A DNA stretch of 64,000 nucleotides from a virus (lineage: Duplodnaviria; Caudoviricetes). The stretch lies in IMG/VR virus record IMGVR_UViG_3300047159_000040, positions 1-64,000 of that record; one strand, written 5' to 3'. The notes under the pieces were generated by a model that saw only the letters and a list, made by a program, of their open reading frames with translations, did not search any database and was not told where the DNA came from. Both the position numbers and the translations under genes were made by a program. Shown here one piece after another: positions 216 through 63,561 of the stretch (positions are counted from its first letter, which is position 1; every line of letters begins with the position of its first letter).

Positions 216-1023
216 AATGCATTGTTGATCCGATCCCTCCGATTCCGGATTTTATTTTTTAGTTCCCACCGGATTCTACGCATTTCCGGAATGGAGGGCT
301 GACCTATCCGACGGATTCGTATGATCCTGCCGTATCCTTGGTCTTACCCTCATAGGAAATAATCCAACGTCATAGGATATCCCGTATATGCAGAATCTGC
401 GCATAGCCGCCTGACCATCACGACGGATTCCTCAGCATCCGCCTATGCCGACGTCGCGGATCCGTTTTATAAAAAGTGCACCCGATCCGGTATAATCCCG
501 CTCATCCATCCGATTCCATCAGGGGATTTTATTTTTTATTTCCTTGGGCGACGGATGCGACGGCCCAGGGATGGGATGCCCCCATATGGGAGAGGGGCCT
601 TATGCATGGCGCGTCGGATACGTCGGCGGAGGGATGGCGGAGATATGGCATGCCATTGCGCTTGGGAGGCGCGTCGGATCCGCCGGGATGGCAATGGGAT
701 GGCATTCCTATGGCATGGGATGACACGAGTCGGATCCGACGTGGGATGGCAGAGCTATGGCATACGATGGCGCTGGAAGACGGACGAGTCGGATACGTCG
801 GCGTCACGGGGCTTCACGCGTGAATTTTGTTCGCTGCTGAGAGAGATTCTTAGAAATCTGATTTTGTTTCTCCCCCGAAAACTATAGTGTTCATCGAATG
901 TTTTTGTCACTTCTAAGTATAGTGTGGCACTATTATGTCATAATTATGACATTATGGAAATAAAATAATATTTCGATGGCGCCTTATGGATAGCTATAGC
1001 ATGTCATAGCAATGCCATTAATT

Positions 1024-1052
1024 ATGACATTATTATGTCATTGGGGTATAAT
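1024..1052 (+). promoter_or_regulatory. sigma70/SigA-type promoter overlapped by an inverted repeat
   Basis: ATGACA (1024-1029), 17-nt spacer, TATAAT (1047-1052). The inverted repeat ATGACAT-tatt-ATGTCAT (1024-1041) covers the -35 box. Confidence 0.55.
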
Positions 1053-1057
1053 GGGAT

Positions 1058-1368: not shown

Positions 1369-1698
1369 GCTTAGGCCCGACCAAGGATCCCCATATATCC
1401 CATATGCCATATGGCGTCGTATCCGGACTGATCCGTCATATAGGATATCCCGCCCATCCCATATGGGGGAGGATCCCATGCGCATAGGGCAATGGCATAA
1501 TCATGACGATAAAAATAATATCCAACGGAGGCGCATGCCATCCATGGAATATAGCCTATGACATCCTTGGCGCTCATCTTAATAACTTGATAAGAAACGG
1601 ATCCGACCCATCCGATGAGGCATATTGATCCTCTTGGCCATGATCGTCGTATTCCCTGGGATGCCCGCCATCGCCATCGCCCCATATGGATCCCCGCC

Positions 1699-2131: not shown

Positions 2132-2341
2132 GGGTCTGAACAGGCCGGTCCAGGCGGATGCGCCCTTCCCGGTCAATGCCCCATCATTATACGGCATATG
2201 GCCCCATGGGGCAAGGGCCCTGAAGTCTGCTCCATGCTCCGCTGTGATGAATGGAAGGCCACGCCGCCCCATCCGGGATTTATTTTTTTTATTTCCTTGA
2301 TTATGGATATATCATTCCTGTGCAAAGGAGGGAACGGGCAT

Positions 2342-2467: not shown

Positions 2468-2503
2468 CGCCCAACCCTCAAGAAAGGAAAATAAAAAATA
2501 AAT

Positions 2504-3172
2504 ATGGAACCCATCGATTTCGGATGCGGCAAGAATCTCAACGAAGGCAACATCAACTCGCCATACAGATACTCCATGGCCTTCATCATGGGGATCCTCA
2601 GAAGCGCCAGGCTCAAAGGCATACAGGCCATCTGCAAGCTCGCGACAAAGCGAAACAGCGAAGAGGATTTCTGGAGAAGCGTCAGCGTCATATTGGGCAC
2701 CGGCGCCAAGAAGATGATATTCATATCCCAGAAGGACGGCTGCTGCCAGGACGATGTCTCATTGGACGCAGAGTCCATAGACTCGGATATGAAAGAGCTC
2801 GGCATGCTTAAGATCGTCCAAGGCAAAGACCGCATATTCTCCGATCCGAAGTATGCCGATATCCTGGCTTACTGCAGCCAGGAAGTCCTGAAGTACGTCG
2901 ATGTCGTGTCGCCTTTGCTGTCCGAGGACATCGGGCAGAAATCCATAGGATTCGCGATCCCGAGGAAAAACTCGTTCCGCGACACGCTGGACGAAGAGTT
3001 CGACGTATCATATGCCTGGAAGATAGACAAGGATATCCTGCCTATCAGGATCATCACCGACAAAGACGCGCGCAGAATGTCTGAAGAATGCGTGATCCCG
3101 TTTCTGAGGGAAATAGGAACATGCGACGCGATTGAGGCGATCGACAGAATATCGATCGACCTCAGGATCTGA
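2504..3172 (+). CDS. paralogue family A member 1, function unknown
   Basis: 222-aa ORF with family motifs ILGTGAK, NSFRDT and C-terminal FLREIG..AIEAIDRISIDLRI. Confidence 0.85.
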   Translation: MEPIDFGCGKNLNEGNINSPYRYSMAFIMGILRSARLKGIQAICKLATKRNSEEDFWRSVSVILGTGAKKMIFISQKDGCCQDDVSLDAESIDSDMKELGMLKIVQGKDRIFSDPKYADILAYCSQEVLKYVDVVSPLLSEDIGQKSIGFAIPRKNSFRDTLDEEFDVSYAWKIDKDILPIRIITDKDARRMSEECVIPFLREIGTCDAIEAIDRISIDLRI

Positions 3173-3201
3173 CCCCTCGGAAAGGAAAATAAAAAATAAA
3201 T

Positions 3202-3879
3202 ATGGAACCCATCGATTTCGGATGCGGATGGAATCTTAACGAGCACTCGAAGGCCAAAGATCGGTACTCGATAAGCCGAATCCGCGAAGTCATAGCCAAG
3301 GCGAGAAGCCTTGGCATACCTGCCATCGCGACCTTGAGATACGACGAAGACAGCGAAGACGGAATCCTCAGAAAGACGAACTTCAACATGGCCGCGCTGC
3401 TGGGGACCGGTGCCAAGAAGATGATATACGAATCGTATATAGACTCTGACAAAAACAGCTCCATGCCGAAGCAACTTCTCGACATCGAATTCGAGATGCG
3501 CGATTCCGGGATGCTTAAAGTCATCGAAGGATCCGACGACGTGAGGATGTATTCCGGGGCGCACGTCATCTCATACTGCAGCAAAGAGGCCATCAAGTAT
3601 TTCGGGATAGTGTCTCCGCTAAAATCTGAATGCGTCGACGAGACGTCGATCGGCGTTCTGCTTCCGAGGGCCAATCTATTCCGCGACACGTTCGATTCGG
3701 AGATCGCCAGCGAATACACTTCGCGAGGAAACAGCAACGTCGTTCCGATCAGACTCATCACGATGCTGTCTCCGTTTAAAAACCAGATCGAAAGAGACGT
3801 CGTGGCCCACCTGCGCGAAATCGGCTCCCAAGACGCCATCGAAGCCATCGCGAGGATAACGCTAGATCTGGAGATCTGA
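3202..3879 (+). CDS. paralogue family A member 2
   Basis: 225 aa. Shares its upstream/5' sequence with 2504 (GAAAGGAAAATAAAAAATAAATATGGAACCCATCGATTTCGGATGCGG). Motifs LLGTGAK and NLFRDT. Confidence 0.85.
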   Translation: MEPIDFGCGWNLNEHSKAKDRYSISRIREVIAKARSLGIPAIATLRYDEDSEDGILRKTNFNMAALLGTGAKKMIYESYIDSDKNSSMPKQLLDIEFEMRDSGMLKVIEGSDDVRMYSGAHVISYCSKEAIKYFGIVSPLKSECVDETSIGVLLPRANLFRDTFDSEIASEYTSRGNSNVVPIRLITMLSPFKNQIERDVVAHLREIGSQDAIEAIARITLDLEI

Positions 3880-5188: not shown

Positions 5189-5905
5189 ATGCTATTAGAA
5201 ACTGGGATAGGCTTCGATGTCTATTCCGAAGAGTCGAAGTCGCAATACGCCGAAGTCATGAGCGTGATAGACCTATCTCTTAAGATGGGCATACCCGTAG
5301 TGGCTATCATATCATACGGGCTGAACGCATATCATGCGGGGGCCATTCTCGGAAGCGGGGCCAGCCATATGCTGCTAAAGTCGCAAGACGAAGACTTCCC
5401 TGAAGCAAAGCTAGGAGACGATATCAGATTAGACGGAAGCTGGGATCTTGACGTCCGCAGAAAATCAGATCGCAGCGTCGTCAACGATTTCGTCAAGTTC
5501 GCAAGGGAATGGCATCTCATCGAGGTGGCAAGCTGCATGGACGTGGCCCTTGGGGATAATAAAATTATTTTCGCCAGCGAGGTAGCCATCAAATACATCG
5601 CGATCGAGTGCGACAAAGAGTCTGGGAGAAACATGCTGACTTTCGAATTCCCTAAAGTCAATGACTTCAGAGACACGTTCGAGCAAGAGATCTCCAAATG
5701 CGGCAAATACAAAGGATTGGAATCCCTGTTCATCGAGATCGCCACGATCGGATTCAATTTCGCTTTCACCAGCGATTCGGGCATCAATCTGTCGCAAGAG
5801 CTGCCTAAGACGATCAAGCGCTGCGTATCCGATGTCCTTAGAAGCTCTGGAAACGAAGAGGCCATCAACAAAGCCGATGAGATAGAGCTTGATCTTAAGA
5901 TCTAA
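5189..5905 (+). CDS. paralogue family A member 5
   Basis: Motifs ILGSGASH, NDFRDT and ADEIELDLKI. RBS AAAGGAGG precedes ATG 5189. Confidence 0.85.
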   Translation: MLLETGIGFDVYSEESKSQYAEVMSVIDLSLKMGIPVVAIISYGLNAYHAGAILGSGASHMLLKSQDEDFPEAKLGDDIRLDGSWDLDVRRKSDRSVVNDFVKFAREWHLIEVASCMDVALGDNKIIFASEVAIKYIAIECDKESGRNMLTFEFPKVNDFRDTFEQEISKCGKYKGLESLFIEIATIGFNFAFTSDSGINLSQELPKTIKRCVSDVLRSSGNEEAINKADEIELDLKI

Positions 5906-5922: not shown

Positions 5923-6612
5923 ATGCATATGATATTATTGGACGATAAATTAGGATATAACATCTATTCTATTGGCGAGCCGAAAGCGCAGTATATCGAA
6001 GTCATTGGAGTGATAGACAGATGCGTCAAACTTGGGATTCCAGTTATTATACGATTGTCATATAGCATAAAGGCATATCAGATAACCGCCATTCTTGGTA
6101 GCGGAGCTAGCCATATGCTGGTTAAATCTGTATCAGATTATTTTCATAATTTTGTGCACGATATCGAAGCAGACAGATCAATCGTCAAATATTTCATTAA
6201 GCGCGCAAAGGAATGGAATCTTATTGAAACCGCCATCGGGGTTGATGCTGATTCAGGGGATAGAACGATTATCTTTGTAAGCGAAAAAGCCATCAAGTAC
6301 ATCACTATAGACAGTTCAGAAACTACTAATGAGAATGCGCGATACATATTCGGATTCGAGCTACCGAAATATAATGACTTCAGAGATACTTTTGAGCATG
6401 AGATGTCATTAAGCGATCAGTATAAGGATGATGACGCAATTTTGATCAAATTCATGACTTTGATATATGAAATAAATGGTTCTCATATTGAGTCATTTCA
6501 TCACCATATCAATGAAACGATCAATAACAGAGTCATCAGTATCCTTCGTAGCTCAGGATGCGCTGAAGCCGTAATAAAAGCCAATGAGCTAGAGCTTGAT
6601 CTTAAGATCTAA
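5923..6612 (+). CDS. paralogue family A member 6
   Basis: Close paralogue of 5189..5905 (ILGSGASH, NDFRDT, ANELELDLKI). RBS AAAGGAGG. Confidence 0.85.
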   Translation: MHMILLDDKLGYNIYSIGEPKAQYIEVIGVIDRCVKLGIPVIIRLSYSIKAYQITAILGSGASHMLVKSVSDYFHNFVHDIEADRSIVKYFIKRAKEWNLIETAIGVDADSGDRTIIFVSEKAIKYITIDSSETTNENARYIFGFELPKYNDFRDTFEHEMSLSDQYKDDDAILIKFMTLIYEINGSHIESFHHHINETINNRVISILRSSGCAEAVIKANELELDLKI

Positions 6613-8251: not shown

Positions 8252-9379
8252 CCTTAAGAAAGGAGGCACAATTATGTCAGATGATAGCCATACGATAACA
8301 TTCGTATCGAGAAAGACGTTCAAGCCGCTGTCGAATATGCTGGTGACGAAGATCAGTAAGCGGGACAAGCCCGAGCTAGAGGATATGGGGATTTTAAAAT
8401 AATTTCCGATCGCGAAGCAAAAGGAATCCCGTCAATCGTCAGAATAGGCTATGGGTATTCTAAGACCTATACGACCAATACCTATCACGATACCTATCCT
8501 GGCTTCTTCAAAGCGATCGACGCCAGGGCCAAATACGCAAACAGATGCTACATCGCAATGCCGGCATGCCATGGCGACGTTGATGCCAAGATCAATGACC
8601 GGCGCGGCTATGTCTATGGCTGCTATGCGAGCAACCGTCGCTTGACTGCATACATTGTCAATTACCTCGAAGAGAAATATGGCATGATCGCGGCGTTCGA
8701 TGGATACTCAGGCATGTTCAGAGATTTCGGGTATAAGCGAGAGCTGATCCTGATCGACAAAGAATTATTCAGCAAGATAAAGGTCGTTTTATACGACAGC
8801 AGCGAATCGTATGAGCTATACGAGATAAATGCAGACAATATAGAAGACGATCTTCAGATCGGAGTTTGCACGCTCGATGCCAGAATAGAATCAGAATGCC
8901 GCTAGATCATAAGATAATCATGGCGACATTCGTATTCGGAGATTTACACGATAGCGCATGCGAAAAATGCAGCCCAAACAAAGTATGCCCGATGCATAGC
9001 GACTTCGTTAGGCAGCATTACGGAGTGACCAACTTCTTTAGCTGCGAGCAAGATGCCGCTGAATTCTTCAAAGACAACGTTATCAGCCGTATAGCGCAAT
9101 ACAGCAAGCCGGCTGCCGATTCGATCGAGCTAAGCCTCAAAGTTTAGTTTAGCCTTAAGAAAGGAGGCACAATTATGTCAGATGATAGCCATACGATAAC
9201 ATTCGTATCGAGAAAGACGTTCAAGCCGCTGTCGAATATGCTGGTGACGAAGATCAGTAAGCGGGACAAGCCCGAGCTAGAGGATATGGGGATTTTAAAA
9301 ATAATTTCCGATCGCTAAGCAAAAGGAATCCCGTCAATCGTCAGAATAGGCTATGGGTATTCTAAGACCTATACGACCA
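8000..9379 (+). repeat. 478-bp direct repeat (8000-8477 and 8902-9379)
   Basis: Both copies run from CTAGATCATAAG to ATACGACCA. Four differences were seen by eye: two substitutions and two homopolymer indels. Confidence 0.9.
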
Positions 9380-9526: not shown

Positions 9527-9559
9527 AAAGAACCCGGATCGCTCCGAGTTCTTTTTTTT
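9526..9559. terminator. bidirectional intrinsic terminator
   Basis: AAAAGAACCCGGA-tcgc-TCCGAGTTCTTTTTTTT between convergent genes. Confidence 0.75.
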
Positions 9560-10373
9560 AGATCATCAAGTCCAGATACAGCTCTTGCTTCTCTTCTTCG
9601 CTGAGCCATCCCGGTATGCCGCAAGCCGTCTGATACGCTTCCATCGGATCGTCGTCTATCGTGAAGATGGCTCTTCTATAATCAGCGAGCCTCCCATTCG
9701 ATCCTGGAACTATCGGCCTTGGCATCGCCGCGTAGTACAGCCCAGACTGATATCCGGTTTTGAATTTGCTTTCCAGCGTGACGTATTCGTATCCCGGATC
9801 CCTGGATTCAGGTGCATAGAACTTTCTATCAGGATCGGCGTATGTGGCTTCTGGATGCTTGAGGCAGAACGAATACATGAGATGGCTGCACCCTTTCTTC
9901 AATGGAGTCCCGGGAGTCTTCGGCCAACATAAGACTATGTCTTTTAGGATTTCTTTCTTAACCAAAGCGAAATACGTGCGTTTGTTTGACGATATCGAGA
10001 TCCATCCATCAGGAGGAAGATGATGCAAGTCGATTCCGGTCAGCCTCTTTATGGCCATCAAGCCTTTGCCTGGTATTCTGTAATAGTCATCGTTCCTGTC
10101 GTCGTATCCCACTGGATTTATCCCAGCGATGCGATCATTGTATCTGAAAACCTCGACGGCTTTCTTGAAATGGACTGAATCTGTATCTCGCATGCGCCTA
10201 AGCGTCTGAGGAGAAGCGAATGCCTTGATGAACTCCATCTCATCTGAGCTGAGCATCCCAAGGCTGCTGTAATCCTCGTTTCTATTGTATATGACGTACG
10301 CTACTGGGCGAGACGGGCCTTCGAGGAGATAAGACGCAAGGCTTATGGAATTTATTTTTTTATTCCTCGGCAT
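9558..10373 (-). CDS. hypothetical protein
   Basis: 271-aa ORF 3 nt downstream of 10377..11030; ends QELYLDLMI. Confidence 0.8.
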   Translation of the reverse strand: MPRNKKINSISLASYLLEGPSRPVAYVIYNRNEDYSSLGMLSSDEMEFIKAFASPQTLRRMRDTDSVHFKKAVEVFRYNDRIAGINPVGYDDRNDDYYRIPGKGLMAIKRLTGIDLHHLPPDGWISISSNKRTYFALVKKEILKDIVLCWPKTPGTPLKKGCSHLMYSFCLKHPEATYADPDRKFYAPESRDPGYEYVTLESKFKTGYQSGLYYAAMPRPIVPGSNGRLADYRRAIFTIDDDPMEAYQTACGIPGWLSEEEKQELYLDLMI

Positions 10374-13539: not shown

Positions 13540-13570
13540 ATATAATGTGTTGATCCTGACGATTTATTTT

Positions 13571-52575: not shown

Positions 52576-52593
52576 TTTATTTTCCCCGGAAAT

Positions 52594-55104
52594 CTACTGC
52601 TGCCCGTTTCCGAAAGACGGATCCATGCCGTTGGCCATGCCGATGGCGTTATCCTTGGCTTCCTTGGCCTTCTTGTCGATCTTGGACTTCGGGGTATCGT
52701 CCTCATTGATCTTCTTGACAAACTCGTCATACTTGTCCCAAGGAACAGCTTTGAGATTCTCCCTGGCGATTGCGCCAGTGAGCTTTCCGCGCTTCTCCTC
52801 GTATTCAAGATCGCCGTTTGCCACAGGAGGAAGCATGATGTCGGTTAGCTTGGTGGCATTGTCGAGAGCCGTGTTGATCATATCGGCAAGATTGCTTTGA
52901 TTGAGGGTGCTCGGGCTCGGGAACGAGATTTCTATCGTCATGGCCTTGTCGATGGCGGCTTGCTTGTCATCGCTGCTAGATCCGACGTTGCACTGCTCAT
53001 TGATGAAAAGCTTTCTCATCATGACAGTGAACGGCTCGGTCAATAGCTTCTGATAGAATATGACGCCGCGCACGAACTGCGAATTCTGAGCCGAAAGCGT
53101 TCTGGCGTAATCGACTTCGGCCAAGGCGTCGATCAGATTCTTAGGAACGTTCATGCCTGAAAGCATGGACCCTTTAAGATCATTGAGGAATTGGTCGTTC
53201 TCATCGGCGTTCATGCCCTGAAGGGAATCGATCTCAATCGGGCGGTCGCCGCCAGCGGTCATCGGGATGAAGTAATCATCGAATTGGCCGGGGCTGTTGC
53301 TGAGAATAGTGCTGATGTCGTTGATGTTCGACATCTTGTATTCTTTGCTCTTGATGTTCTGAATAACGGTTGAGATAGCTTGCTCATAGTCGGCGTCAGG
53401 CCCTGATGCGACATAGAAGATTCTCTTGTCGTGGCTGCGTCCGAGCTTGATGAGCAATGAGTTATTAAGGACGGCGAGATAGAGTTTGGCGAAGAACACG
53501 ATCTTTCTATAGATCGAAGGAACCTTGAAATGAATGACCTCGTCAGGCGAGAAGAAGACGACGCGAACGCCTTTCTTCATCATGTAGTCCTGCTTTAGCA
53601 AGGCATACATCATGTCTTTCAGATCCTTGTTGTGCTTGAGATACGGCTTAGACATCTTCTTTGAGATTCCATCGAGGAACAGCTTTGCGATCAGCTGCAT
53701 CTTCTGGTCGCTCACCTGAGCTTCCTGAGCGGCTGCGGTCGACGCGTTAGCCAATGGCTTATTGGCTCCGTTTAGCTGGTTCGACGAAAGATTCAATCCG
53801 CCTTGGCTTGGCTGATAAGTTGTGGCGGTTCCGAGATATCCGCTGTTGGCTGGGGCGGCATTAGACGTATCGCCGAGGAAATAGAAATAGCCATACGAGA
53901 CATCGTCGACTGAAAGATCGACGACTTTTTCGGCGTCAAGATGGCGGACGACCGATCCGAGGATTCCCAGCGACTCGGTTCCGGCGCCGTCTTTGGCGGC
54001 ATCGGTTGTCTTCTTATACACGAGATCGGGAATATCGGATTGCGCCTCGTGATCCTTCGTGTTGTCTTTCGAAAGATCCGCTTCGAATCTTTCGGTCAGG
54101 ATGGCGGCCGCAGGAAGCACTTTGAAATTATCGTTTATGCATTTGCTGATGGCGTCTCCGATCTTCTTGGAGTAAATCATGGCGGCGGCTTTTGATTCCG
54201 TCTTGCCATCGCTTCCGACTACCGAAGACTGCTCATCTTTGCTGAGCGTGACGAATTCCTCTTTGAGGATATTGCGCTCATCCGAGCTCATTGAGAGATA
54301 TTGCTCTTTGGTGATTATGTCGTTGGCGGTCATTCCGCCGAGCATGGAATAATTATTATTTTCCATTCCTTCCATGATGGAAGTCATGCTCTCAAGAAGG
54401 GCTTCTTTAGAAACCGTAAATGACTCATTGAGGGTCTTGGCTGACTTTCCGGCATAGATCGGATCAGAAATCATGCTGCTCATCTCGCGATCGAGCGAAA
54501 GAACGGCTTCGTAGTCATCGCCTAAGATAAGCGTTTTCTCTACGATGTCTCCGATCTTGTCCTCGATCTTGTATTTCTTGATGATCTGTTTGCACTGATC
54601 CTCGATTAGCTCCGACTCCTTCTCGGTTTTGTCGTTGCAGCTGACGGTGAAGATGGATTTGGTGTAGTCATCAGGGCTCATGATGTTGTCTTTGTAGATA
54701 TCGAGGGCAGTAGCGCATTCAGGGATGTGCTCGAAGATGGCTTCATAGTTTTGATAATTAAGGATTCTGGCCGTGTCGCTCTGCAAGATCGACGACGCCG
54801 CCGAAACGTTTTCGGAATTGAGCATCTTCTTGATTGAGTTGTTGGCATCGAAAATGGCTTTGGTGGCATCATCGTGGCGCATCGCAAGCCCGAGGGAAAC
54901 CTCGGTGAAGTGGTCGATTACGTCGGTTCCGGTATGGAGGCCGTACTTCTTTCTTGTGTCTTCGGCTGTCTTGCGGGCGATTAGCTCGATCGTGCTGTCA
55001 TCGTCGCTGAGACGGTTATCGGATCCGAATATTGCCTCGGATGACTTGTTGGACAGCCCTTTGATCGTGGCTATTCCGACGTTGTTGTTCTGCTCATTTG
55101 CCAT
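52594..55104 (-). CDS. portal protein (T4 gp20-like)
   Basis: HIPECATALDIYKDNIMSPD, KRIFYV, DDYFIP..GGDRPIEIDSLQG and GMNVP follow the gp20-type motif order. Confidence 0.8.
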   Translation of the reverse strand: MANEQNNNVGIATIKGLSNKSSEAIFGSDNRLSDDDSTIELIARKTAEDTRKKYGLHTGTDVIDHFTEVSLGLAMRHDDATKAIFDANNSIKKMLNSENVSAASSILQSDTARILNYQNYEAIFEHIPECATALDIYKDNIMSPDDYTKSIFTVSCNDKTEKESELIEDQCKQIIKKYKIEDKIGDIVEKTLILGDDYEAVLSLDREMSSMISDPIYAGKSAKTLNESFTVSKEALLESMTSIMEGMENNNYSMLGGMTANDIITKEQYLSMSSDERNILKEEFVTLSKDEQSSVVGSDGKTESKAAAMIYSKKIGDAISKCINDNFKVLPAAAILTERFEADLSKDNTKDHEAQSDIPDLVYKKTTDAAKDGAGTESLGILGSVVRHLDAEKVVDLSVDDVSYGYFYFLGDTSNAAPANSGYLGTATTYQPSQGGLNLSSNQLNGANKPLANASTAAAQEAQVSDQKMQLIAKLFLDGISKKMSKPYLKHNKDLKDMMYALLKQDYMMKKGVRVVFFSPDEVIHFKVPSIYRKIVFFAKLYLAVLNNSLLIKLGRSHDKRIFYVASGPDADYEQAISTVIQNIKSKEYKMSNINDISTILSNSPGQFDDYFIPMTAGGDRPIEIDSLQGMNADENDQFLNDLKGSMLSGMNVPKNLIDALAEVDYARTLSAQNSQFVRGVIFYQKLLTEPFTVMMRKLFINEQCNVGSSSDDKQAAIDKAMTIEISFPSPSTLNQSNLADMINTALDNATKLTDIMLPPVANGDLEYEEKRGKLTGAIARENLKAVPWDKYDEFVKKINEDDTPKSKIDKKAKEAKDNAIGMANGMDPSFGNGQQ

Positions 55105-55127: not shown

Positions 55128-55961
55128 TTAATCGATTGTTCGGGACGATATTTTGCGTAAGGCGGATACAAGATGCGTGTAATTCGACATCGAAACCTTA
55201 GCCAGTATCTGACTGGAATACATATAGATATTTCCATTCGGAAACACCGTTGAGTTTGTGAAAGAAGACGTATCCATCGAAGAGTCTATCCTGTCGTAAT
55301 TTAGAATGGCTGACGCTCTGATGATCGCTCCGCTCATCTCGACGAGCGATCTTTCGTCGTTGATTCTCTCAAATGATTCGTAGAAATCGGGGAATCCGGC
55401 AGTCTCGGAATATTCGGTTCCGTGGATAACCCACCAGGATATCTTCTTCTCATCGTCGGTAAGGACATCGAATATCGAAGAGAATTCATCCTTGATGTTA
55501 TCAAGATCCTTATAGGAATCTCCGACTCCTTTTCCGTAGTATGCACTGACGACGTAATCCCTGGCGTGCTTTATGGCAACCGATGATCTGGCGCTAAGAA
55601 CGGTGAATCCCTCATTCGCCAGGATGAAGCAATAAAGCTCATCTCTGGCCTTATCCTCGTCTGAAACTCCGAAGAGGCTGAATGAGAGGCTATCGCTTAT
55701 GACATCGTCTATCGACAGATATTCGTTGAACAGCATATAGCACACGTATGTGCAAAGATCTTTATTGGATATCGAAGCCAGAGCAGCGTATTTAGCTGCG
55801 GTGCTTCTGGTCATTATCACCTGGAAAAAATATTTTATTTCCTCAGGAGAGATGGATCTGAGGATATAGTTTCTTAGATCGGTGTAATTGTATTGGTCTA
55901 TCGCAGATCCGGCAAGAAGCGCCTTGGCGTTGAAGCGGATGTTTCTTGATCCGATTGTCAT
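55128..55961 (-). CDS. hypothetical protein (probably structural)
   Basis: 277 aa in a coupled operon upstream of the portal. Confidence 0.75.
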   Translation of the reverse strand: MTIGSRNIRFNAKALLAGSAIDQYNYTDLRNYILRSISPEEIKYFFQVIMTRSTAAKYAALASISNKDLCTYVCYMLFNEYLSIDDVISDSLSFSLFGVSDEDKARDELYCFILANEGFTVLSARSSVAIKHARDYVVSAYYGKGVGDSYKDLDNIKDEFSSIFDVLTDDEKKISWWVIHGTEYSETAGFPDFYESFERINDERSLVEMSGAIIRASAILNYDRIDSSMDTSSFTNSTVFPNGNIYMYSSQILAKVSMSNYTHLVSALRKISSRTID

Positions 55962-58558
55962 ATTTTCTTGATCCCCCTTCCTCCGCCTCCGAATTTGGCC
56001 CGTCCGTTCCTTGCTGAACTGAATGCGTCATCATGGTATGTCTTAGGTTCTTCATACGTCGCTGGAAGATGAGGAACCCTCGTCACGGTAGTGGATCCTA
56101 ATCCATAATGCCATGAGAAATAGCTTTCGGTATATGACGAAACGCGCCTTGATTCGATCAAAGACCTTCTTAGGAATTCAAGCATGGCCATCAATCTGAA
56201 TCCATCATGCCCGAAGCATGGCTTGAATGTTATGGCATCGCTTTCTAGGTTTCCGGAGCATCCGTAATACATATCCTCGGACGTCATGCTGCCGAACATG
56301 AACAGAAGATATTGCTCGAACATATCGCAATACATCAATCTCTTGATCTTATCTGAGAATGATCTTATTCCTGACACATCGATGAGCTTATCGTGAACCG
56401 AATTGATGAGAAGACGGGCATATGCCCTTCGCTCAGTGTCAGTGTCAAGATCAAATTTGTTGTATGTGTCTAATCCGGCATTGGATATCATCGTCTGAAT
56501 CGTGGTGCAGAAAGCATCGAATCCGCTCAGGAACTCATTGCTCAGCTTAGATATCGCGTAATTTCTTGTCCCGGAATACTCGACTCCGAACTTGAGGGCG
56601 GTCCCCATCAGATCTTTATAGTCTGACGAATCCGATCTCATGATGATATCTGGAGAGATTCTGCCGTAATCTGAGCTCAGATTGTCTCCGAACGCCGAAT
56701 ATATCTTGTCGTTTACGAGCGATATGGCTACTGCGGCTGCCGATTTAACTATGTTTCCGGCGATCGATATCGTAGAGAATATCGTTGGGATGTACTCACG
56801 AGAGTCGTACGTATTTACGTACGCGCCCAAAGTGCTGGTTACAGATGACTTCATGGCCGATGAGCTGCAGGCCGTGGATGCGACATAATGCCTGAAGAAG
56901 CTTACCGTGGATCCGCTGACGCTCACCGACAATCCAGATTCCGGATGGATATAGGATCCATTCGAATAAAACGCGTAATCCCCCATGATGAGAGGACGGA
57001 CGCTGATTTTCGTTCCGGTGCTTGTCGAAGCGTGATATCCGGCAGATACGGATGCCGATGCCCAGTAAGTCTCATAGCCTCCGTTGGCATATCCCGAAGG
57101 AAGGATCATCGTCGACAGATACCTATCGGCATAGGCCGGAGTTCCGACTTCGCATCCATTCAGATCGTCGGAATCCGAAGATCTCAGCGACGATGATATC
57201 ACAGGATGGAACACTTCTTTTATCGCAGTCTGGAAATTCCATTCCATCAAGGCTCCGAGATGATCTTTGCTCGTTACGATGCTGGCGTTTTTGGCTGGGT
57301 ATACCTTGGTCTCGTCATAGAACGACATGAATGTGGTAGGAAACAGATTGCTCGATGAAAGGCTATCGGTTCCAAGAGCCGATCCGCTATGCTCATAAAG
57401 AGATCTGACATAAGCCGCTGACTTGTAATAGTCGAGTATCGCGGTTGAGTTGCTGTCGAACAATTCAGAGCTGCGGCTTCCGGATCCGTCTATGTTCGCC
57501 GTTTCGAAAGCGTATGCGCTGACGACTCGGTTCATGGCCATCTTGTAGAATTCTTTGACGTTGAGCGAATATCTTGGGCCAACCGATACCGACGCCCCGT
57601 AATTGATGCAAGTGTTGTAGTAATTATCGTAATCTCCGGAATATATCGTATCGTATAAGCTTGCCAGATATCCGATGGATACCGACGCCCTTACCGTGCC
57701 GTCGTCATATGACGAAGACTGCCCGAGGTATATCCCTTCGACGACATCGATTATGCTTCTGGTGGAAGCGGACAGATACCCTCTCATCACCGAAAATAGA
57801 GCGATATGGCCATCCCTGGCGTATTCAGTGCTGACGGAAATATTATATTTTTCCGGGATTAGAGAACCGAGGCGATATGCCGGTATCTTCGGTTTCACAT
57901 GCGAGCTTGTCCATTGATTAGGCGTATGAGGAAGAAGGCCGTTAATGATGATCTGGTCGCTCATCGTATGGCTTGAGTATGCACTATAGAACACTTTATC
58001 TTGGCTTACTTTGGCAAGCTCTTTCTCGGCGGTTAGAGAATGATCGGAGTCGTAATCCGGAGAATTGGAAAGGAATACGCTGGAAGACAATCCGTTTGAT
58101 GATCTGGCGAAGTTGCTGATTATGTCAGGCCTGTCGCTGTTGCTTCTCAGTTTCTCAAGGATGAGATTGATTCTTCCAGACACCGTATTATCGCTTAGGA
58201 AATCGGAGACATCGGATGCCGTCATATCCCCTGAGTAGATAAGATAAGCCAGCGCCAGAACGGCATATCCGTTTATCGATGCGAAAACCGACTCGTTGTT
58301 GAGGGCTTCTTCTCCGAGTCCGAAAGTATCCGATATCTTTGCTCTGATGTCGGAATAGCTATAATGCGGAATGGTGTATCCCATCTTGGCGAAAAAGTTT
58401 CCGTTGGCCGTTCCGACCGAAGCTGCCTCGGCATCGGATGCCTTGGAATAGCTCGAGTTCAAAAGACCCGATCTGAGATACTCCGCTGTTATCAGAGTCT
58501 CGTTTCCGGATTCGTCCTTAAGATAGTATGCCATTGTCGCCTTCCTTGAACCTGTCAT
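55958..58558 (-). CDS. hypothetical protein (probably structural)
   Basis: 866-aa ORF; the start is probably MAYYLKD at ~58534. Confidence 0.75.
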   Translation of the reverse strand: MTGSRKATMAYYLKDESGNETLITAEYLRSGLLNSSYSKASDAEAASVGTANGNFFAKMGYTIPHYSYSDIRAKISDTFGLGEEALNNESVFASINGYAVLALAYLIYSGDMTASDVSDFLSDNTVSGRINLILEKLRSNSDRPDIISNFARSSNGLSSSVFLSNSPDYDSDHSLTAEKELAKVSQDKVFYSAYSSHTMSDQIIINGLLPHTPNQWTSSHVKPKIPAYRLGSLIPEKYNISVSTEYARDGHIALFSVMRGYLSASTRSIIDVVEGIYLGQSSSYDDGTVRASVSIGYLASLYDTIYSGDYDNYYNTCINYGASVSVGPRYSLNVKEFYKMAMNRVVSAYAFETANIDGSGSRSSELFDSNSTAILDYYKSAAYVRSLYEHSGSALGTDSLSSSNLFPTTFMSFYDETKVYPAKNASIVTSKDHLGALMEWNFQTAIKEVFHPVISSSLRSSDSDDLNGCEVGTPAYADRYLSTMILPSGYANGGYETYWASASVSAGYHASTSTGTKISVRPLIMGDYAFYSNGSYIHPESGLSVSVSGSTVSFFRHYVASTACSSSAMKSSVTSTLGAYVNTYDSREYIPTIFSTISIAGNIVKSAAAVAISLVNDKIYSAFGDNLSSDYGRISPDIIMRSDSSDYKDLMGTALKFGVEYSGTRNYAISKLSNEFLSGFDAFCTTIQTMISNAGLDTYNKFDLDTDTERRAYARLLINSVHDKLIDVSGIRSFSDKIKRLMYCDMFEQYLLFMFGSMTSEDMYYGCSGNLESDAITFKPCFGHDGFRLMAMLEFLRRSLIESRRVSSYTESYFSWHYGLGSTTVTRVPHLPATYEEPKTYHDDAFSSARNGRAKFGGGGRGIKKI

Positions 58559-59798
58559 CTTTTAGGATGAAGGCTCTTGCCTTGATGAGATAGTCTTTTA
58601 TCGTGTCAAGAGATCCTTCGGCTAATACGCTGAGCTCTTTTGATGGAACCGGCAGATTATTGACGAAATAGTCGATCAGCAACGCTGATTTTATCTTTGC
58701 GATGTCGTCTATTCCATCGATATTGCTTGACGATGTCGCGTTGGCGGTATCAAACGACAACGCCGTGAAAGGAGAATACGATTTGATGAAATCCTGGAAA
58801 GGTATCATCGCTGAGTCATCGTAGTAATAGTCTTTTCCATCGCTCGACTCGGATAGCATGAGCTTGTCGATATACCTGACGAAATCAAGCATGAATGAAT
58901 CGATGTAGCCATCAACCATTTCTGGAGAAAGCATTCTGTATCTTCCTCCGATGACGCTTACGGCTATCGAGTCAAGATGACCGTCATTGGCTAATCCGTT
59001 CTTGAATCCTGGTTCGTACAAGAACAGCGGATGATATTCAGATCCGTCATCGATTCGTTTGCATGACAGATCGCATATCTTCTTCATCCTTTCGGAGAAT
59101 TCGTTGGTCATTCCGGAAAGCGACGATGCAGATAGCTCGGAATAGGATGACATGTCCTGATAATATGTTGTTTCGGCGTCTCTCACGCTTCTGAAGCACT
59201 CGCCGGATCCTACCGCCAAAGGGCAGATGTCAGGATACACCAAATAGTTCTTCTCATACACGGAAGTGAATCCGCATGGGAACGAATTGAAGTATCCGTC
59301 TATGAAAGGCCTTAGGCTTCTAAGCGTCCCGTTTATCGAAACGTTGAATTGGGTGAGCTTCCTCTTAATGCGGCTTTCTTTGTCTTTGACTATGGCGTCA
59401 TATCCCATTCCGTCGAGCATGACCAGAAGATCATATGACGGAGTCGACGCGCCGATATCGACTAATTTCATGATGTCGTAGAAGCTTAGATCGCCGTCGG
59501 ATATTCCATAGAATATGTCATACACGGCAGCCTCATATGACGAATCGATTACCGATGCGTCGAACAACGCGATCATATCATCGGCATATCCAAGAAGATC
59601 GTCTCTATGAGATGTCTCATCGCTTGTCACGTCGTCGACGGTCTCTTTAGACACTAGAGAATCGGCGTATTTCTGATTGATGTCGGCTATGGCGTTCGAA
59701 GCCCTGGCATTGACGAATGCCTTATAGCCTCTGTATTCCGAAGCGAGGATCTTATAGCCGTTCTTGTTTATGTATGACTTGACTGGCATGGTTATCAA
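58518..59798 (-). CDS. hypothetical protein
   Basis: 426-aa ORF overlapping its neighbours. Confidence 0.75.
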   Translation of the reverse strand: MITMPVKSYINKNGYKILASEYRGYKAFVNARASNAIADINQKYADSLVSKETVDDVTSDETSHRDDLLGYADDMIALFDASVIDSSYEAAVYDIFYGISDGDLSFYDIMKLVDIGASTPSYDLLVMLDGMGYDAIVKDKESRIKRKLTQFNVSINGTLRSLRPFIDGYFNSFPCGFTSVYEKNYLVYPDICPLAVGSGECFRSVRDAETTYYQDMSSYSELSASSLSGMTNEFSERMKKICDLSCKRIDDGSEYHPLFLYEPGFKNGLANDGHLDSIAVSVIGGRYRMLSPEMVDGYIDSFMLDFVRYIDKLMLSESSDGKDYYYDDSAMIPFQDFIKSYSPFTALSFDTANATSSSNIDGIDDIAKIKSALLIDYFVNNLPVPSKELSVLAEGSLDTIKDYLIKARAFILKDDRFKEGDNGILS

Positions 59799-60409
59799 TC
59801 CTTCGGAAGCCTGAGATACTCCGCCAGGGATTTTATTTTTTTAATCCCCTCGACGGACAGGTCGTTCCTGTTCATGAAATCTATGTCGACCTGATTGAGG
59901 ACGATATGATCGTAATCCACCGGTATGACGTAATCGTTTATCGACATCAGCCAGTGAGACGCGTCTCCGGCCGATATGGCTCCGCTTAGAAGATCTGAAT
60001 ATAGCTTCTTTCGGCAGGCATCGGTTATCGGGTCTCCGGTAGAGCTCTGGGACACGAGCGAGAAAAGGATGTTATTGATTTCCTCAGTCTTCTCATCCAT
60101 ATACCCAGAATCGCCTTTCACGATTCCGTACTTCTGGATATCAGTCGCCGCCCTGAATTCGGCAAGCCTGGACATCTCGGTATAAAGCTCATTCTGGGTC
60201 TCGATGGACTCAGCTATAGCTTTGCCTATCGCGCTATCGGAGAACACTGGCTCGAAATCGGATATCTTCAGATCTCCTTCAAGAATGAGCTCCATGATCT
60301 TAGAGAACACGGAATCGTCGAGATAGTCGCACAGCATGTTTAGGGTGTCGTAGTCTTTCTCGCATATCCTCATCGAGTCTATGCCATCAATGATTCCTTG
60401 CTTTGTCAT
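59795..60409 (-). CDS. hypothetical protein
   Basis: 204 aa with ATGA overlaps. Confidence 0.75.
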   Translation of the reverse strand: MTKQGIIDGIDSMRICEKDYDTLNMLCDYLDDSVFSKIMELILEGDLKISDFEPVFSDSAIGKAIAESIETQNELYTEMSRLAEFRAATDIQKYGIVKGDSGYMDEKTEEINNILFSLVSQSSTGDPITDACRKKLYSDLLSGAISAGDASHWLMSINDYVIPVDYDHIVLNQVDIDFMNRNDLSVEGIKKIKSLAEYLRLPKD

Positions 60410-63400
60410 GCTACCAGGTCCTTGAATGATCCGGACAATGCCGAATTGCTTCCATTAACGATGTCATTGATGATGATATTTCCGTCAGTGTCGAATGAGT
60501 AAAAGAATTTCCAGACGTTTAAATACGTCGAAAGAACGTCTTTTATGGTTGAAGCATAAGACGATGAGCTGACTATGGCTTCCGTGATCTCAGATGAGCT
60601 TGTGTATTCTGAGGCGTCCGTTATCCCATATAACGAAAAGATGGCGTTGTATGCCGGGCTGTATTTAGACCCCGTCTCGTACGCGGCCATGGCGAACTTC
60701 TTAAGCGATTCAGACAATCCGGCCATGAATAAAATCGATCTGGGCGACATGCTGGTGCTTGATGCCGCTTTCATAGACGACACGATCTTGGGAATCATAT
60801 CGTTGACGTCATCTGGGCTTATGGCTGATATATAGCTATCCCACACCTCTTCCATCTTGTCGGTTACCTCGTCGTAATAATCAGACGCTGAATCTGATGT
60901 TATGAGAGTGGATAGCGTCTTCTCGAGATCGACGGAATTTAAGCTTATAGATCCTGGGATAGAAGATACCAACGCATATGGAAGCTTTGATTGATTGATG
61001 TTTCTGGAAACGAGAAGGCCATGATCTTTAAGAAGAGATCTCTCATCCTCCATGATCTTGATGCATCTCCCGCTTACGAGTTTGTTAGACAAGCCTTTGT
61101 TTTCAATGAGATCCTTTACGATATAAGACCCGATCGATTTAATGGAGTCCTTCATAACGGAGAATTCATCATCGCCTCTATCTGGGATGTGGTGAAGGAT
61201 GGCATAAGCCATAAACGCCATGTATGCGTCAAGCTTGGTCCCGTCTGTGAATTCGATGAATGCCTTAGTCCAAGATTCATAGTCTTCATCCGAATCAAAA
61301 GACATTTTATAGATCTTGGTTCCGCTGTATTCGATCGACTTCAGATCAGACGTGCTTCCGGTAAGGGCTTCTACTAACGTAGACCCGCTTGTGTATGACT
61401 TAGTCATGTACTTGCTTTGATCCGGGCATAAAAGCATGCCGTCTCTGCTGATGATATCGCTGACATCCATTATCTGAGAGCAGATGCTCACGATTGCTGA
61501 ATCGGCGAGTCCTTCGGCTTTATTGACGGAAGCTTTGGCTGATTCGATGTCTGAGTTAGATGAGATGTCTTCTACGCTCATGTCGTCAACGCTTGTGATG
61601 TTTCCGATATATCCCTGAGCGGTCGAGATCTCGTTTGATATGTCTTCTACCAGCGAATCATCGTACCCTGAGTCATTGGTCGATAGCGACGAATTGGCAT
61701 TTACGAATGTCGAAAGAACCCCGCTTATGCCGGAGATGGAAGACATGATGCTTGATTTTTTGCTTCCGGATATGATCGACATGTCGGTTAAGGCTGACAT
61801 AACGACTTGCTTTGAGCTCTCATAATTAGCCGAATTGAGATAGAAAGCAGCCGAAGTCCAGTCTTTTATTCCGATGATCTTAGACAAATCCGATACATAA
61901 GCAGCATCGGCGTCTTCATCGGCAAGGCTATCGCCAGACGCTCTAGACGATATCGATGTGCTTCCGACATTAGCGGGAGACTGGCTCATGGCGGCTGGAA
62001 CGAGATCGTCGTCCATATGCGCTTGATTAGAAGTAACCTCTGGATCGGCGATGATGTCGTATATCGGAGATCCGTTGTTGTACTTGACTCTGAGATAGAC
62101 CTCCTCATTGACGGAAGACGACCCCGAATCGGTGGCGTCTTTCACAGTGAGAGATCCGTGATAAATCGTATATCCGTAAACTTGGTTTCCTGTTTCCGGA
62201 TCCGCCAGAGGAGACACTCCGGACTCTGAGCTGACCTTGCCAAGAGTTCCGGTGCACGTGAATGCCGTAGTCGATCCATGCTTTATGACGCGGTTAACGC
62301 TGATGCTATCAGACAGCGCCTGAGGCTTGTTCTGATCGAATGAAGCGAAATCCATTGTAAGAGTGTCGTAGTAATCGAAAGGAGACGACTTGTTGGTCGC
62401 TGTCTCGATATGGTACTTCCCTGAGAATCTGACGGCGTTTGATTTGTCCCTGATGATGTACATGCTTCCATCATCTTTGGTGGCCCATCTTGAATCGCTT
62501 CCGAAAAACCAATGCGGATTGAAATAAAGCTCTGATGTTATCTTTCCGCCTTCCTCGGTCGGAGCCGGATCTTCGAATGTCGCCGTATACAGAGCTTTGC
62601 TCCAGAAGATGAGAACCGGCTGGCTTGTCTCCACGAACTTGACGTTGTTGATATGAAGAAGGCATGAGCTGACGTATATGCTTTTGAGATCGCTTTCGGT
62701 GATGTTTGACAGATCTGTTATCTCATTGGCGGTATGAAGGGTTATCAGCATATCGGCGGTCTGCCCGACGAGAGACGACGTGCTTACCTTTGACGGGAGA
62801 AGGAAAATATTTTTAATTTCCCCGGATATGATGTTCTTTCTCGTCACGGTAACATTTCCAGATGAATCGTGGGATATGGAAGGAACCACTTCGCCATTAT
62901 TCCTTGCAGAATTAACGTAATTCTCTAGAATCGCTCTGATATTCTCAATGACGTCGAATGCGTCGGTCCTGTATTTTGAAACGATGCTCGAAGACTCTCC
63001 GTTCTTAACGGAGTCGCCATACAGGGCGATATCGTCATATAGTTTTTTCAAAAGAGACGATATCGACGATGAGCTATCTGAAGACACGCTGGAATATGCG
63101 GAGATGTCTCTGCTTAGATTGGTGAATCCATTATCGGCCATGGCAAGATAGTATTCAGCCATCTCAGCAAGGCCAAGATTCTCGGCAAGGACGAATCTTC
63201 TCTTGTGAAGATTTGCCAAAGCGGTTTGAAGGGATTTCCATTTGTCAACGACATCTTCAAATTTTGTCTTCAGCGAGCTAACGTCTTCAGACGCTGACGT
63301 GTCAGATGCTTCTGAATTAAACGAGTTCTGCAGGGATTTCAGCTGAGATAGTATGGAATCTGACGAAACGGCCATCTCGCTTGTGGAATCAGTCGATGAC

Positions 63401-63561
63401 GTAATCCCCGGATATTTTAAAATATTTGGCGAATCGACGTTTTTGACAAGGGTGTTTTTAATCTCGCTCGAATTCGAGTATGCGTCAAGTATCTGGGTTG
63501 ATAGGGTTTTGAAATTAGCGTTAAAGTTGTATCTCATAAGCTTACCAAAGCCATAATTCAT
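60406..63561 (-). CDS. large hypothetical protein (probably structural)
   Basis: 1051 aa, S/D-rich. A late motif at 63553-63565 overlaps the called start, so the true start may be slightly downstream. Confidence 0.75.
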   Translation of the reverse strand: MNYGFGKLMRYNFNANFKTLSTQILDAYSNSSEIKNTLVKNVDSPNILKYPGITSSTDSTSEMAVSSDSILSQLKSLQNSFNSEASDTSASEDVSSLKTKFEDVVDKWKSLQTALANLHKRRFVLAENLGLAEMAEYYLAMADNGFTNLSRDISAYSSVSSDSSSSISSLLKKLYDDIALYGDSVKNGESSSIVSKYRTDAFDVIENIRAILENYVNSARNNGEVVPSISHDSSGNVTVTRKNIISGEIKNIFLLPSKVSTSSLVGQTADMLITLHTANEITDLSNITESDLKSIYVSSCLLHINNVKFVETSQPVLIFWSKALYTATFEDPAPTEEGGKITSELYFNPHWFFGSDSRWATKDDGSMYIIRDKSNAVRFSGKYHIETATNKSSPFDYYDTLTMDFASFDQNKPQALSDSISVNRVIKHGSTTAFTCTGTLGKVSSESGVSPLADPETGNQVYGYTIYHGSLTVKDATDSGSSSVNEEVYLRVKYNNGSPIYDIIADPEVTSNQAHMDDDLVPAAMSQSPANVGSTSISSRASGDSLADEDADAAYVSDLSKIIGIKDWTSAAFYLNSANYESSKQVVMSALTDMSIISGSKKSSIMSSISGISGVLSTFVNANSSLSTNDSGYDDSLVEDISNEISTAQGYIGNITSVDDMSVEDISSNSDIESAKASVNKAEGLADSAIVSICSQIMDVSDIISRDGMLLCPDQSKYMTKSYTSGSTLVEALTGSTSDLKSIEYSGTKIYKMSFDSDEDYESWTKAFIEFTDGTKLDAYMAFMAYAILHHIPDRGDDEFSVMKDSIKSIGSYIVKDLIENKGLSNKLVSGRCIKIMEDERSLLKDHGLLVSRNINQSKLPYALVSSIPGSISLNSVDLEKTLSTLITSDSASDYYDEVTDKMEEVWDSYISAISPDDVNDMIPKIVSSMKAASSTSMSPRSILFMAGLSESLKKFAMAAYETGSKYSPAYNAIFSLYGITDASEYTSSSEITEAIVSSSSYASTIKDVLSTYLNVWKFFYSFDTDGNIIINDIVNGSNSALSGSFKDLVA

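Follow-up and report, generated by a model that had tools for sequence, protein, structure and literature searches.

Evenly spaced, GC-clamped A/T boxes in a GC-rich jumbo phage of the AR9/PBS1 type: candidate signals for its own RNA polymerases

Why should a phage genome of balanced base composition carry, about every 2 kb and also within its genes, an unbroken run of some 16 A or T bases closed by GG on one side and by CC on the other? The question was raised by a stretch of 64,000 nucleotides, here called the window, which represents the first 64 kb of the 145,948-bp viral record IMGVR_UViG_3300047159_000040 (Duplodnaviria; Caudoviricetes). The record is 49% GC and is estimated to be 57% complete, and the full genome was put at roughly 250 kb. 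Coordinates are those of the window, while 'record position' denotes a coordinate in the whole record. A maximal pure A/T run of at least 13 bp was termed a box and, with W standing for A or T, GG-W16-CC was taken as its canonical form. The element is real, strongly selected and common to a small lineage of phages. It is not accounted for by the promoter and terminator classes known from these phages, though parts of the set overlap both, and the reading preferred here, tentatively, is that the boxes may be GC-clamped melting boxes which serve as start sites for the RNA polymerases (RNAPs) of the phage and, behind hairpins, as stop sites.

A selected A/T box of restricted length

An earlier note on this DNA had listed 12 exact GGA-W14-TCC sites, together with 16-mers with variant flanks, runs of 15 or 17 bases and a one-mismatch copy at 35290. 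All of its coordinates were correct, the 12 exact sites were recovered independently and the other classes were present; nine runs, at 249, 1509, 2488, 3186, 16833, 23293, 27485, 44594 and 52570, had been missed. A scan of the window for A/T runs returned 38 boxes of 13–18 bp (3, 4, 7, 20, 2 and 2 boxes of 13, 14, 15, 16, 17 and 18 bp respectively). The distribution of A/T-run lengths in the window was bimodal, with a smooth decay to 11 bp (two runs), no runs of 12 bp and a second peak at 13–18 bp. The whole record yielded 84 boxes (9, 10, 20, 37, 6 and 2 over the same lengths), with the mode at 16 bp, and no comparable peak was found among G/C runs in the run-length histogram of the record.

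The flanks were equally distinctive. GG and CC bounded 41 of the 84 boxes in the record compared with about 0.5% of short A/T runs, among which no flank pair rose above about 3%, and the run itself began with A and ended with T in 64 of the 84. The GGA...TCC flanks are two-fold symmetric, which agrees with the pseudo-palindromic site described in the earlier note, and palindromy within the run was modestly greater than the shuffled expectation (81/123 vs 65). When oriented by the local gene strand the boxes gave a loose consensus of GG, three to four A, T, five to seven A, T, three A, T and CC; a loose pattern in common was seen in only about 17–20 copies. The two G carried 1.6 and 0.9 bits and the two C 1.3 and 0.65 bits, and no conservation beyond GG-W16-CC was found in the flanking positions. 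The length distribution has a sharp upper edge (37 boxes of 16 bp and 6 of 17 bp) and a softer lower tail. The flanks therefore belong to the site and are not merely the place where an A/T run stops.

GG-W15/16-CC sites numbered 35 in the record and none in a first-order Markov genome. Within open reading frames (ORFs) 37 runs were observed, in all three codon phases, whereas synonymous codon shuffling within genes, which keeps the unusual peptides encoded at the boxes, left 8.9 (maximum 19 in 200 shuffles). The proposal that this is a selected, fixed-length element written into coding sequence was thus confirmed. The box at 5556..5571, a W16 run that encodes part of the peptide GDNKIIF in ORF 5189..5905, is lacking from the close paralogue 5923..6612, as had been pointed out; it differs from the paralogue by five substitutions at aligned codons (DRTIIF to DNKIIF), which indicates that boxes arise in place within coding sequence. 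Nine assemblies of this phage, obtained independently from other samples, were 99.96–100% identical in this region and carried the same boxes, which are therefore not an assembly artefact.

Two structural candidates were rejected. Stem pairing continued past GG/CC at 10 of 41 boxes, which is the level of chance, and an extended hairpin or cruciform around the box was therefore discounted. A mobile miniature repeat of the REP/MITE kind was excluded on the grounds that neither conserved sequence nor a stem exists outside the core and that the box in ORF 5189..5905 was made by substitutions, not by insertion.

The boxes are evenly spaced. Over the whole record the mean spacing was 1755 ± 925 bp with a coefficient of variation (CV) of 0.53, against 0.99 for a Poisson process, and the non-random spacing of about 2 kb that had been suggested was upheld. 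When the same number of boxes was placed at random junctions and the rest were distributed uniformly, the mean CV was 0.94 and the minimum in 5000 runs was 0.66. In a second null, in which the junction copies were fixed and the internal copies were randomised in 5000 simulations, the simulated CV was 0.89 and the observed value was matched in 0 of 5000; there were 6 gaps of over 3 kb against 13.3 simulated (P = 2e-4), and 4 gaps of under 500 bp against 14 simulated (P <2e-4). Internal copies fill stretches that would otherwise be free of boxes, and gene length therefore does not account for the even spacing, which matches no known promoter or terminator class. Counting from the start points of the late promoters described below revealed no periodic placement.

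Boxes were also present in relatives. In contigs L009–L011 (59% GC, portal 70% identical) 14.6 kb of sequence contain 10 boxes, with the mode at 15 bp, GGG..CC flanks and none at 12–13 bp, and L036, a 5-kb contig of 53% GC around a capsid gene of 77% identity, carries three. Five of the 10 positions in L009 have a counterpart in the window phage, all of them at junctions, and the other five have none; two window copies are without a counterpart in L009. These data show that positions turn over while density is kept, and the comparison with relatives that the earlier note had proposed came out in favour of a selected site. L017 (IMG/VR 3300042363_001848; 55% GC, 39% portal identity), a more distant relative, was without 15–16-bp boxes; several of its gene junctions carry A/T boxes of 8–12 bp, perhaps the same signal in a shorter version, and the clamped 15–16-bp form is thus specific to this lineage. 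Most other portal or capsid relatives are 26–36% GC, a composition in which the box signal cannot be seen. No relatives by terminase were found among viral contigs, a scan of viral contigs with the box pattern returned only AT-rich chance matches, and a metagenome scan with the 76%-identical capsid protein gave only one unrelated match, of 41%. A literature search for evenly spaced AT-rich phage elements produced nothing relevant.

Placement relative to genes, late promoters and terminators

The large terminase shares 40% identity with its counterparts in the Bacillus jumbo phages BpSp, Goe21, AR9 and PBS1. The record also encodes a T4-type portal, a major capsid protein, tail sheath, tube, DNA polymerase, helicases and three split RNAP subunits; the genes at record positions 110601 and 117657 match AR9 g154 (non-virion beta-prime C-terminal subunit) and AR9 g270 (non-virion beta-prime N-terminal subunit), and the gene at record position 85644 matches AR9 g264 (virion RNAP beta C-terminal subunit, 36% identity). 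An AR9-like terminase together with subunits of a virion and a non-virion RNAP places this phage, as a GC-rich representative, among the AR9/PBS1-like jumbo phages, which bring their own RNAPs. There were no tRNA genes in the record; ThyA and ThyX were not found in the partial genome (57%), which is uninformative.

The phage has a late promoter that is separate from the box. The AR9-type late consensus is AACA with C at -9, six bases, and then T and a purine start. A tight late-promoter motif, AACAATNGATTA, was found in 30 strong copies in the record and also in L009 and L036, and a scan with AACA-N6-TA/G placed 26 of 133 loose matches 0–80 nt upstream of same-strand starts, against 2–14 for shifted or permuted controls. 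The motif precedes the terminase, sheath, tube and portal genes, the genes for proteins of 2006 and 1066 aa, and others. Its sites in the window lie on the − strand at 16799-16810, 23347-23358, 27513-27524, 35028-35039, 38105-38116, 49500-49511, 55129-55140 and 63554-63565 and on the + strand at 38177-38188, 41253-41264, 49559-49570 and 51629-51640. In many copies (among them 38177-38190, 41253-41266 and 63551-63565, and record positions 138242, 135469, 124403 and 105019) the final TTA runs into TG. There the late promoter is fused to ATG and transcription is predicted to begin at the A of that codon, so that the late mRNAs would be leaderless. No box contains a C, and AACAATNGATTA fills the role of the AR9-type late promoter; the boxes are therefore not that promoter and would represent a second class of signal.

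The earlier note had seen no link between the runs and gene starts, and this did not hold. A gene boundary lay within 30 nt of 45% of the boxes compared with 10% of random positions, and the sense strand was A-rich at 51 of the 84 boxes, balanced at 17 and T-rich at 16. When k-mers were surveyed in the 100-nt regions that precede the genes, enrichment was confined to three signals: the late promoter, the box, which is the one A/T-rich motif among them, and the Shine-Dalgarno sequence. The strand rule tracks locally inverted genes, examples being the box at 42449..42464 (GG-W16-CC, A-rich on the + strand within the + strand ORF 41264..43681) and those at record positions 125140 and 94256. Inside the left arm, + strand boxes occur at 42449, 2488 and 3186, and inside the right arm − strand boxes occur at record positions 125140 and 94256. 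Boxes that follow the local gene strand and not the replication arm argue against a replication-oriented motif (Chi/KOPS-like), and an Okazaki priming site was rejected for the same reason.

Two further candidates did not survive inspection. A good −35/−10 pair followed only 4 of 83 boxes (4.8% vs 1.3% background), which is not the behaviour of an UP element of sigma-A/sigma-70 promoters. A subclass defined by sequence and peculiar to early genes was not apparent, as the copies with the tightest consensus are distributed among ORFs, terminators and junctions alike.

At a typical junction the order is stop codon, box, Shine-Dalgarno sequence and ATG, with the box ending 12–26 nt before the start. 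A box lies 15–21 nt upstream of both non-virion RNAP genes, and at record positions 101169 and 110564 nothing but the box is conserved in the interval from a terminator to the gene that follows it. A purine was found at +6 past the box in 35 of 43 intergenic copies (p = 9e-5) and in 16 of 28 ORF copies. Copies balanced in A and T made up 14 of 34 in ORFs and 3 of 39 between genes. No consistent in-frame start codon followed the in-ORF boxes, all three phases being used, and an internal translation start after them was not supported.

This arrangement raises an RNA-level role, in which the box would provide an unstructured A-rich patch within GC-rich mRNA for ribosome loading or initiation by the Shine-Dalgarno sequence, or would let an RNA-binding protein or RNase enter. 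The initiation region contains about 24 boxes, either 12–26 nt before ATG, abutting ATG or in codons 2–7. The abutting copies are two identical W18 runs, both A-rich on the + strand, at 2488..2505 (gene 2504..3172) and 3186..3203 (gene 3202..3879), the two genes being paralogues. The A-rich strand is the sense strand, and several boxes are certainly transcribed, downstream of late starts: a W16 run at 49475..49490 (−) in the terminase leader, the A-rich W14 run at 27485..27498 (−) in the 5' leader between the late promoter 27513-27524 and the ATG at 27468, and boxes of the L009 portal and terminase genes. The terminase box follows the late promoter 49500-49511, lies 9 nt past the predicted late start and 12 nt before the ATG, so it would be transcribed. 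An RNA-level role would nevertheless leave unexplained the 26–30 or so copies deep within ORFs, the filling of gaps, the GG/CC clamps and the fixed length, as well as the A-to-T swaps between relatives and the copies upstream of promoters in untranscribed spacers, such as 38145..38160 (GG-W16-CC, −), between the divergent late promoters 38105-38116 (−) and 38177-38188 (+), and record position 80425. A box is near the start of only about a quarter of genes. The RNA-level role was accordingly judged improbable.

A minority of the boxes belong to terminators. On the T-rich strand about 10–13 of them stand immediately behind a strong hairpin, with a fold energy no higher than the 5th percentile of background, and the other roughly 70 are without an upstream hairpin and face the A-rich way. 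From this sequence anatomy, the T-rich-sense and convergent-junction boxes directly after hairpins, about 10–13 in number, appear to be the U-tracts of intrinsic and often bidirectional terminators. The window has four, named here and below with their A-rich strand. These are 16833..16846 (−, W14), with the late promoter 16799-16810 lying 22 nt downstream; 28197..28212 (−, GG-W16-CC), at a convergent junction, a bidirectional U-tract for gene 28252..28956; 44594..44608 (+, W15), at a convergent junction, for gene 43904..44566; and 52570..52583 (+, W14), after the tail-tube gene. The positions of the last two are also occupied in L009. Across L009 as a whole, boxes lie 7 nt past the portal late start, 5 nt past the terminase late start, 5 nt before the tube promoter and in terminator U-tracts. 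The only strain length polymorphism within a box of this region is an extra T at 52579, in the U-tract after the tube gene, which is 14 or 15 bp long according to strain. These copies resemble ordinary intrinsic terminators in that the box stands after a strong GC hairpin at operon ends or convergent junctions, several act in both directions and their positions are kept in relatives; they are unlike them in that the U-tract is 14–16 nt of A-interrupted T closed by CC. Ordinary terminators with short runs of 6–9 T are also present in the genome.

Termination at oligo-T without a hairpin occurs in RNA polymerase III, in archaeal RNAP and in the poxvirus early system. By analogy with these, the boxes might be orientation-dependent insulators, at which an antisense RNAP would terminate on a 16-nt U-rich tract without a hairpin while transcription with the A-rich strand as sense passes. 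The strand rule, the regular spacing independent of genes and the use of the same sequence class as the U-tract of hairpin terminators would all be consistent with an insulator, and boxes just past late starts would shield the promoter from incoming antisense RNAPs. However, the balanced in-ORF boxes (14 of 34) would act only weakly and in both directions, and T-rich-sense boxes occur in a late-gene leader (record position 90258) and in the last codons of an L009 gene. The strong late promoters are specific, so that antisense initiation should be rare, and hairpin-independent termination is undocumented for these RNAPs. Insulation was considered the least probable of the functions weighed here, and very unlikely.

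A possible start and stop signal or a possible architectural site

The preferred reading treats the boxes as cis-acting signals for the phage's own AR9-type multisubunit RNAPs, which would be recognised mainly through properties of the duplex, easy melting and fixed length, rather than through an exact base sequence. With the A-rich strand as sense a box would be a start or loading site; we infer initiation by an RNAP, the enzyme concerned and the point of start. Copies every 0.5–3 kb along co-directional gene arrays would allow transcription to start and restart throughout, including inside very long genes. With the T-rich strand as sense and a hairpin directly upstream, the box serves, to judge by sequence anatomy, as the U-tract of an intrinsic terminator. 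As a start site the box may correspond, against a GC-rich background, to the extended AT-rich promoters used by the virion RNAP of AR9/phiKZ phages.

The earlier note knew of no described equivalent, and in that form the statement was too broad, since the virion-RNAP promoters of AR9 and phiKZ (PMC5312081, PMC7598289) and terminator U-tracts are partly akin. The early promoter of AR9, which is read by the virion RNAP, has an all-A/T core of 13 nt, then six bases and then a G as the start (PMC5312081, PMC7598289). That AR9-type virion-RNAP promoters are known to be AT-rich gives a strong prior for a transcription signal. The likeness extends to the same kind of lineage, with virion and non-virion multisubunit RNAPs, to extended all-A/T sequence of similar length in sense orientation upstream of genes, including those for the non-virion RNAP, and to the purine 6–7 nt downstream. 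The boxes are unlike the early promoters of AR9/PBS1 and phiKZ in keeping only A/T composition and GG/CC clamps with no base sequence, in being about three to four times as dense, in occurring also in late operons and deep within ORFs, and in being evenly spaced. The distance from box to start codon is also much shorter than in AR9.

More distant parallels exist for repeated starts. In T7-type arrays a promoter occurs every few kb, some at gene ends or inside genes, and the overlapping transcripts are co-directional with the genes. The boxes likewise recur along co-directional gene blocks and are in part intragenic, although T7 promoters span 23 bp, are sequence-specific, serve a single-subunit RNAP, are not defined by composition only and do not fill gaps in long ORFs. 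The poxvirus early system has an A-rich core of about 16 bp as its start and T5NT as its stop, and its multisubunit RNAP is packaged in the virion. The shared features are an A-rich start of about 16 bp, a T-rich stop and a packaged viral RNAP; virus and host are unrelated and the poxvirus signals are gene-specific and not evenly spaced, so that this is an analogy only.

Several observations weigh against a start signal. Each position inside the run carries 1.0–1.4 bits, barely above the value for A/T composition alone, while the AR9 early promoter is reported to be highly sensitive to sequence. At positions shared with L009 the order of A and T differs freely and the length by 1–2 bp while the runs stay pure A/T, and in the homologous codons INKIFP and INFIFP a change from Lys to Phe (AAA to TTT) keeps the run and reverses its strand skew. 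The density is about three to four times that of the 41 early promoters of AR9, and it is the same in structural operons driven by late promoters, and in their ORFs, as elsewhere. About 26–30 boxes lie deep within ORFs, as canonical in length and flanks as the intergenic copies, and internal boxes fill gaps rather than precede genes. Several positions are also awkward for a promoter: codons 2–7 after a well-supported start (record positions 84919, 103351 and 109012), 5–14 nt downstream of a late-promoter start (49475, 27485 and the L009 portal and terminase genes), and 14 nt before a terminator (record position 112822). A start 6–7 nt past the box would remove the Shine-Dalgarno sequence of several downstream genes.

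Much of this would be accommodated if the box were a duplex-level architectural site, GGA-W14-TCC being bound by a dimeric phage or host protein or forming a defined point of melting, torsional relief, nicking or cleavage. Such a site would be needed every few kb (0.5–3 kb) over the genome of about 250 kb, regardless of gene structure and set within coding sequence wherever a spacer is lacking, for condensation, packaging, ejection or replication, and the strand bias would be a by-product, U-rich tracts in mRNA terminating transcription and Phe/Leu-rich peptides being costly. An architectural role would fit the even spacing that gene structure does not explain, with internal copies filling long gaps, the sharp upper length cut-off (37 of 16 bp vs 6 of 17 bp) and the symmetric, strict GG/CC flanks. 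In-ORF copies are as canonical as intergenic ones and use all three codon phases, and relatives conserve A/T-ness only, with turnover at constant density and a K-to-F change that preserves the run. The mixed contexts, in leaders, in early codons, before and after late promoters and before terminators, point the same way. The lone T-rich-sense copy in a leader, at record position 90258, begins 5 nt from the start point, too close for a hairpin to form ahead of it, and so fits passive counter-selection. The match of contig L027 to the window, which ends exactly at a box boundary, was also counted in favour, though this single breakpoint may be an assembly join.

Sites of the Fis/IHF style are G/C-bounded with an A/T-rich centre that is read through groove shape. 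The boxes share with them the symmetric G...C bounds and an A/T-only centre of free sequence; they differ in being 20 bp long compared with about 15 bp, in having a transcription-tied strand rule and regular genome-wide spacing, and in that the partial genome yielded no candidate binding protein. A search of the 57% of the genome at hand turned up no HU/IHF-type gene, which counts against an architectural role, as does the lack of a phage precedent. The spacing of the half-sites, about 17 bp, would place GGA and TCC on different faces of the helix. T-rich-sense copies without a hairpin number at most four, compared with about 50 A-rich-sense copies, the four-fold enrichment at gene boundaries needs a secondary argument, and L017, a relative of 55% GC, is without the boxes. 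A rough tally of likelihoods left an architectural role and an RNAP signal about level, and the RNAP signal was put first; the architectural role is somewhat unlikely on present evidence, and would make the boxes a genome-organising element of a kind not described for phages.

Copies along the window and their significance

The remaining copies in the window were assigned as follows. Near the contig start are a W13 run at 249..261 (−), where the gene context is uncertain, a canonical GG-W16-CC at 526..541 (−), in or near small ORFs of uncertain status, and an intergenic W16 run at 958..973 (+), with the next + strand feature 61 nt downstream. The intergenic W13 run at 1509..1521 (+) has a strong hairpin on its 3' side, of terminator type on the opposite strand, and GG-W17-CC at 2278..2294 (−) is of ambiguous gene assignment. 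Two copies, GG-W15-CC at 8391..8405 (balanced in A and T) and GG-W16-CC at 9292..9307, the latter with one extra A, lie in the two copies of a direct repeat. The repeats (8000-8299/8902-9200 and 8203-8477/9105-9379) are about 275–300 bp long and 99% identical, contain one box each and are situated at the end of an array of eight paralogous genes for proteins of about 230 aa (2504-8251).

Several boxes mark junctions between genes. GG-W16-CC at 10349..10364 (−) is at the junction of the − strand genes 10377..11030 and 9558..10373, and the W16 run at 13562..13577 (−), between two genes of one operon, overlaps the stop codon of 13571..16771 and is 22 nt upstream of 11098..13539. The W16 run at 45838..45853 (−) occupies the last codons of 45816..46604, 59 nt upstream of 44600..45778, and the homologous L009 codons keep an A/T-only run in spite of a K-to-F change; GG-W16-CC at 47450..47465 (−) lies between the terminase stop and the start of the next gene (22 nt), a position also occupied in L009; and GG-W16-CC at 59830..59845 (−) is in the last codons of 59795..60409, 32 nt upstream of 58518..59798. 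GG-W17-CC at 20597..20613 (−) follows gene 20675..22234 and precedes the non-coding stretch before a reverse-transcriptase gene, 19139-20203(−) (PHROG 1423), which adjoins tail-fibre-like genes. A W14 run at 23293..23306 (+) is located in the leader downstream of the − strand late promoter 23347-23358 and is T-rich in that transcript, and the intergenic, hairpin-flanked W13 run at 35295..35307 (−) corresponds to the one-mismatch copy noted earlier at 35290.

Within ORFs, GG-W16-CC at 15984..15999 (−) lies in the 1066-aa ORF (GDNINKIL), 772 nt from its start, and the 908-aa ORF 23892..26618 contains three copies, W16 at 24683..24698 (balanced), GG-W16-CC at 25226..25241 (−, GKLNNKS) and GG-W15-CC at 26090..26104 (balanced). 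The 2006-aa ORF has GG-W15-CC at 30253..30267 (balanced) and at 33385..33399 (−, ENKINS), the latter near the consensus, as is the W16 run at 40671..40686 (−) in ORF 39590..41218 (DEIKNNF). GG-W15-CC at 54348..54362 (−) in the portal ORF (MENNNYS) lies in a lineage-specific insertion and is absent from the 70%-identical homologue. ORF 55128..55961 has GG-W16-CC at 55825..55840 (balanced, EEIKYFF), the 866-aa ORF has GG-W15-CC at 57838..57852 (−), and the 1051-aa ORF has GG-W16-CC at 62804..62819 (−, GEIKNIF) and a W16 run at 63412..63427. The boxes at 15984, 54348, 57838 and 62804, in four different long genes, all lie 706–772 nt from the gene start, which may be coincidence. At the GGA boundary of the 63412 box (L027 position about 1692) the match of L027, an independent assembly that is otherwise 99.99% identical, stops, and the sequence past the breakpoint is unrelated and includes a TROVE-domain gene; the breakpoint is either a recombination junction or physical end at the box, or an assembly join.

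Two features elsewhere in the record were recorded. At record positions 89540-90238(−) and 90239-90712(+) (L013) two divergent and apparently real genes meet at their start codons; the − strand gene has its late promoter and leader inside the first codons of the + strand gene, and one box is common to both. A segment of about 135 bp is repeated with 98% identity at record positions 102473-102604 and 124405-124539 (L013/L014/L015); the segment opens with a different 14-bp A/T run and a TATAAT-like box, ahead of a GC-rich structured stretch, and the repeat may represent the duplication of a gene for a small RNA.

Jumbo phages that bring their own multisubunit RNAPs serve as models of host-independent transcription, and what is known of their promoter logic comes from only a few AT-rich genomes, in which the background composition hides A/T-rich signals. 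The present GC-rich lineage exposes all of its A/T-dependent signals, namely the AR9-type late promoter, the terminators with long U-tracts and the far more abundant class of boxes, the spacing rule of which is strong enough to override protein coding. With about 145 defined sites per genome, the box also provides a simple signature with which this lineage may be spotted in metagenomes. If the boxes are starts for the phage RNAPs, promoters would be recognised by properties of the duplex and transcription would restart every 2 kb; if they are not, they would constitute a new kind of signal for the organisation of a phage chromosome.

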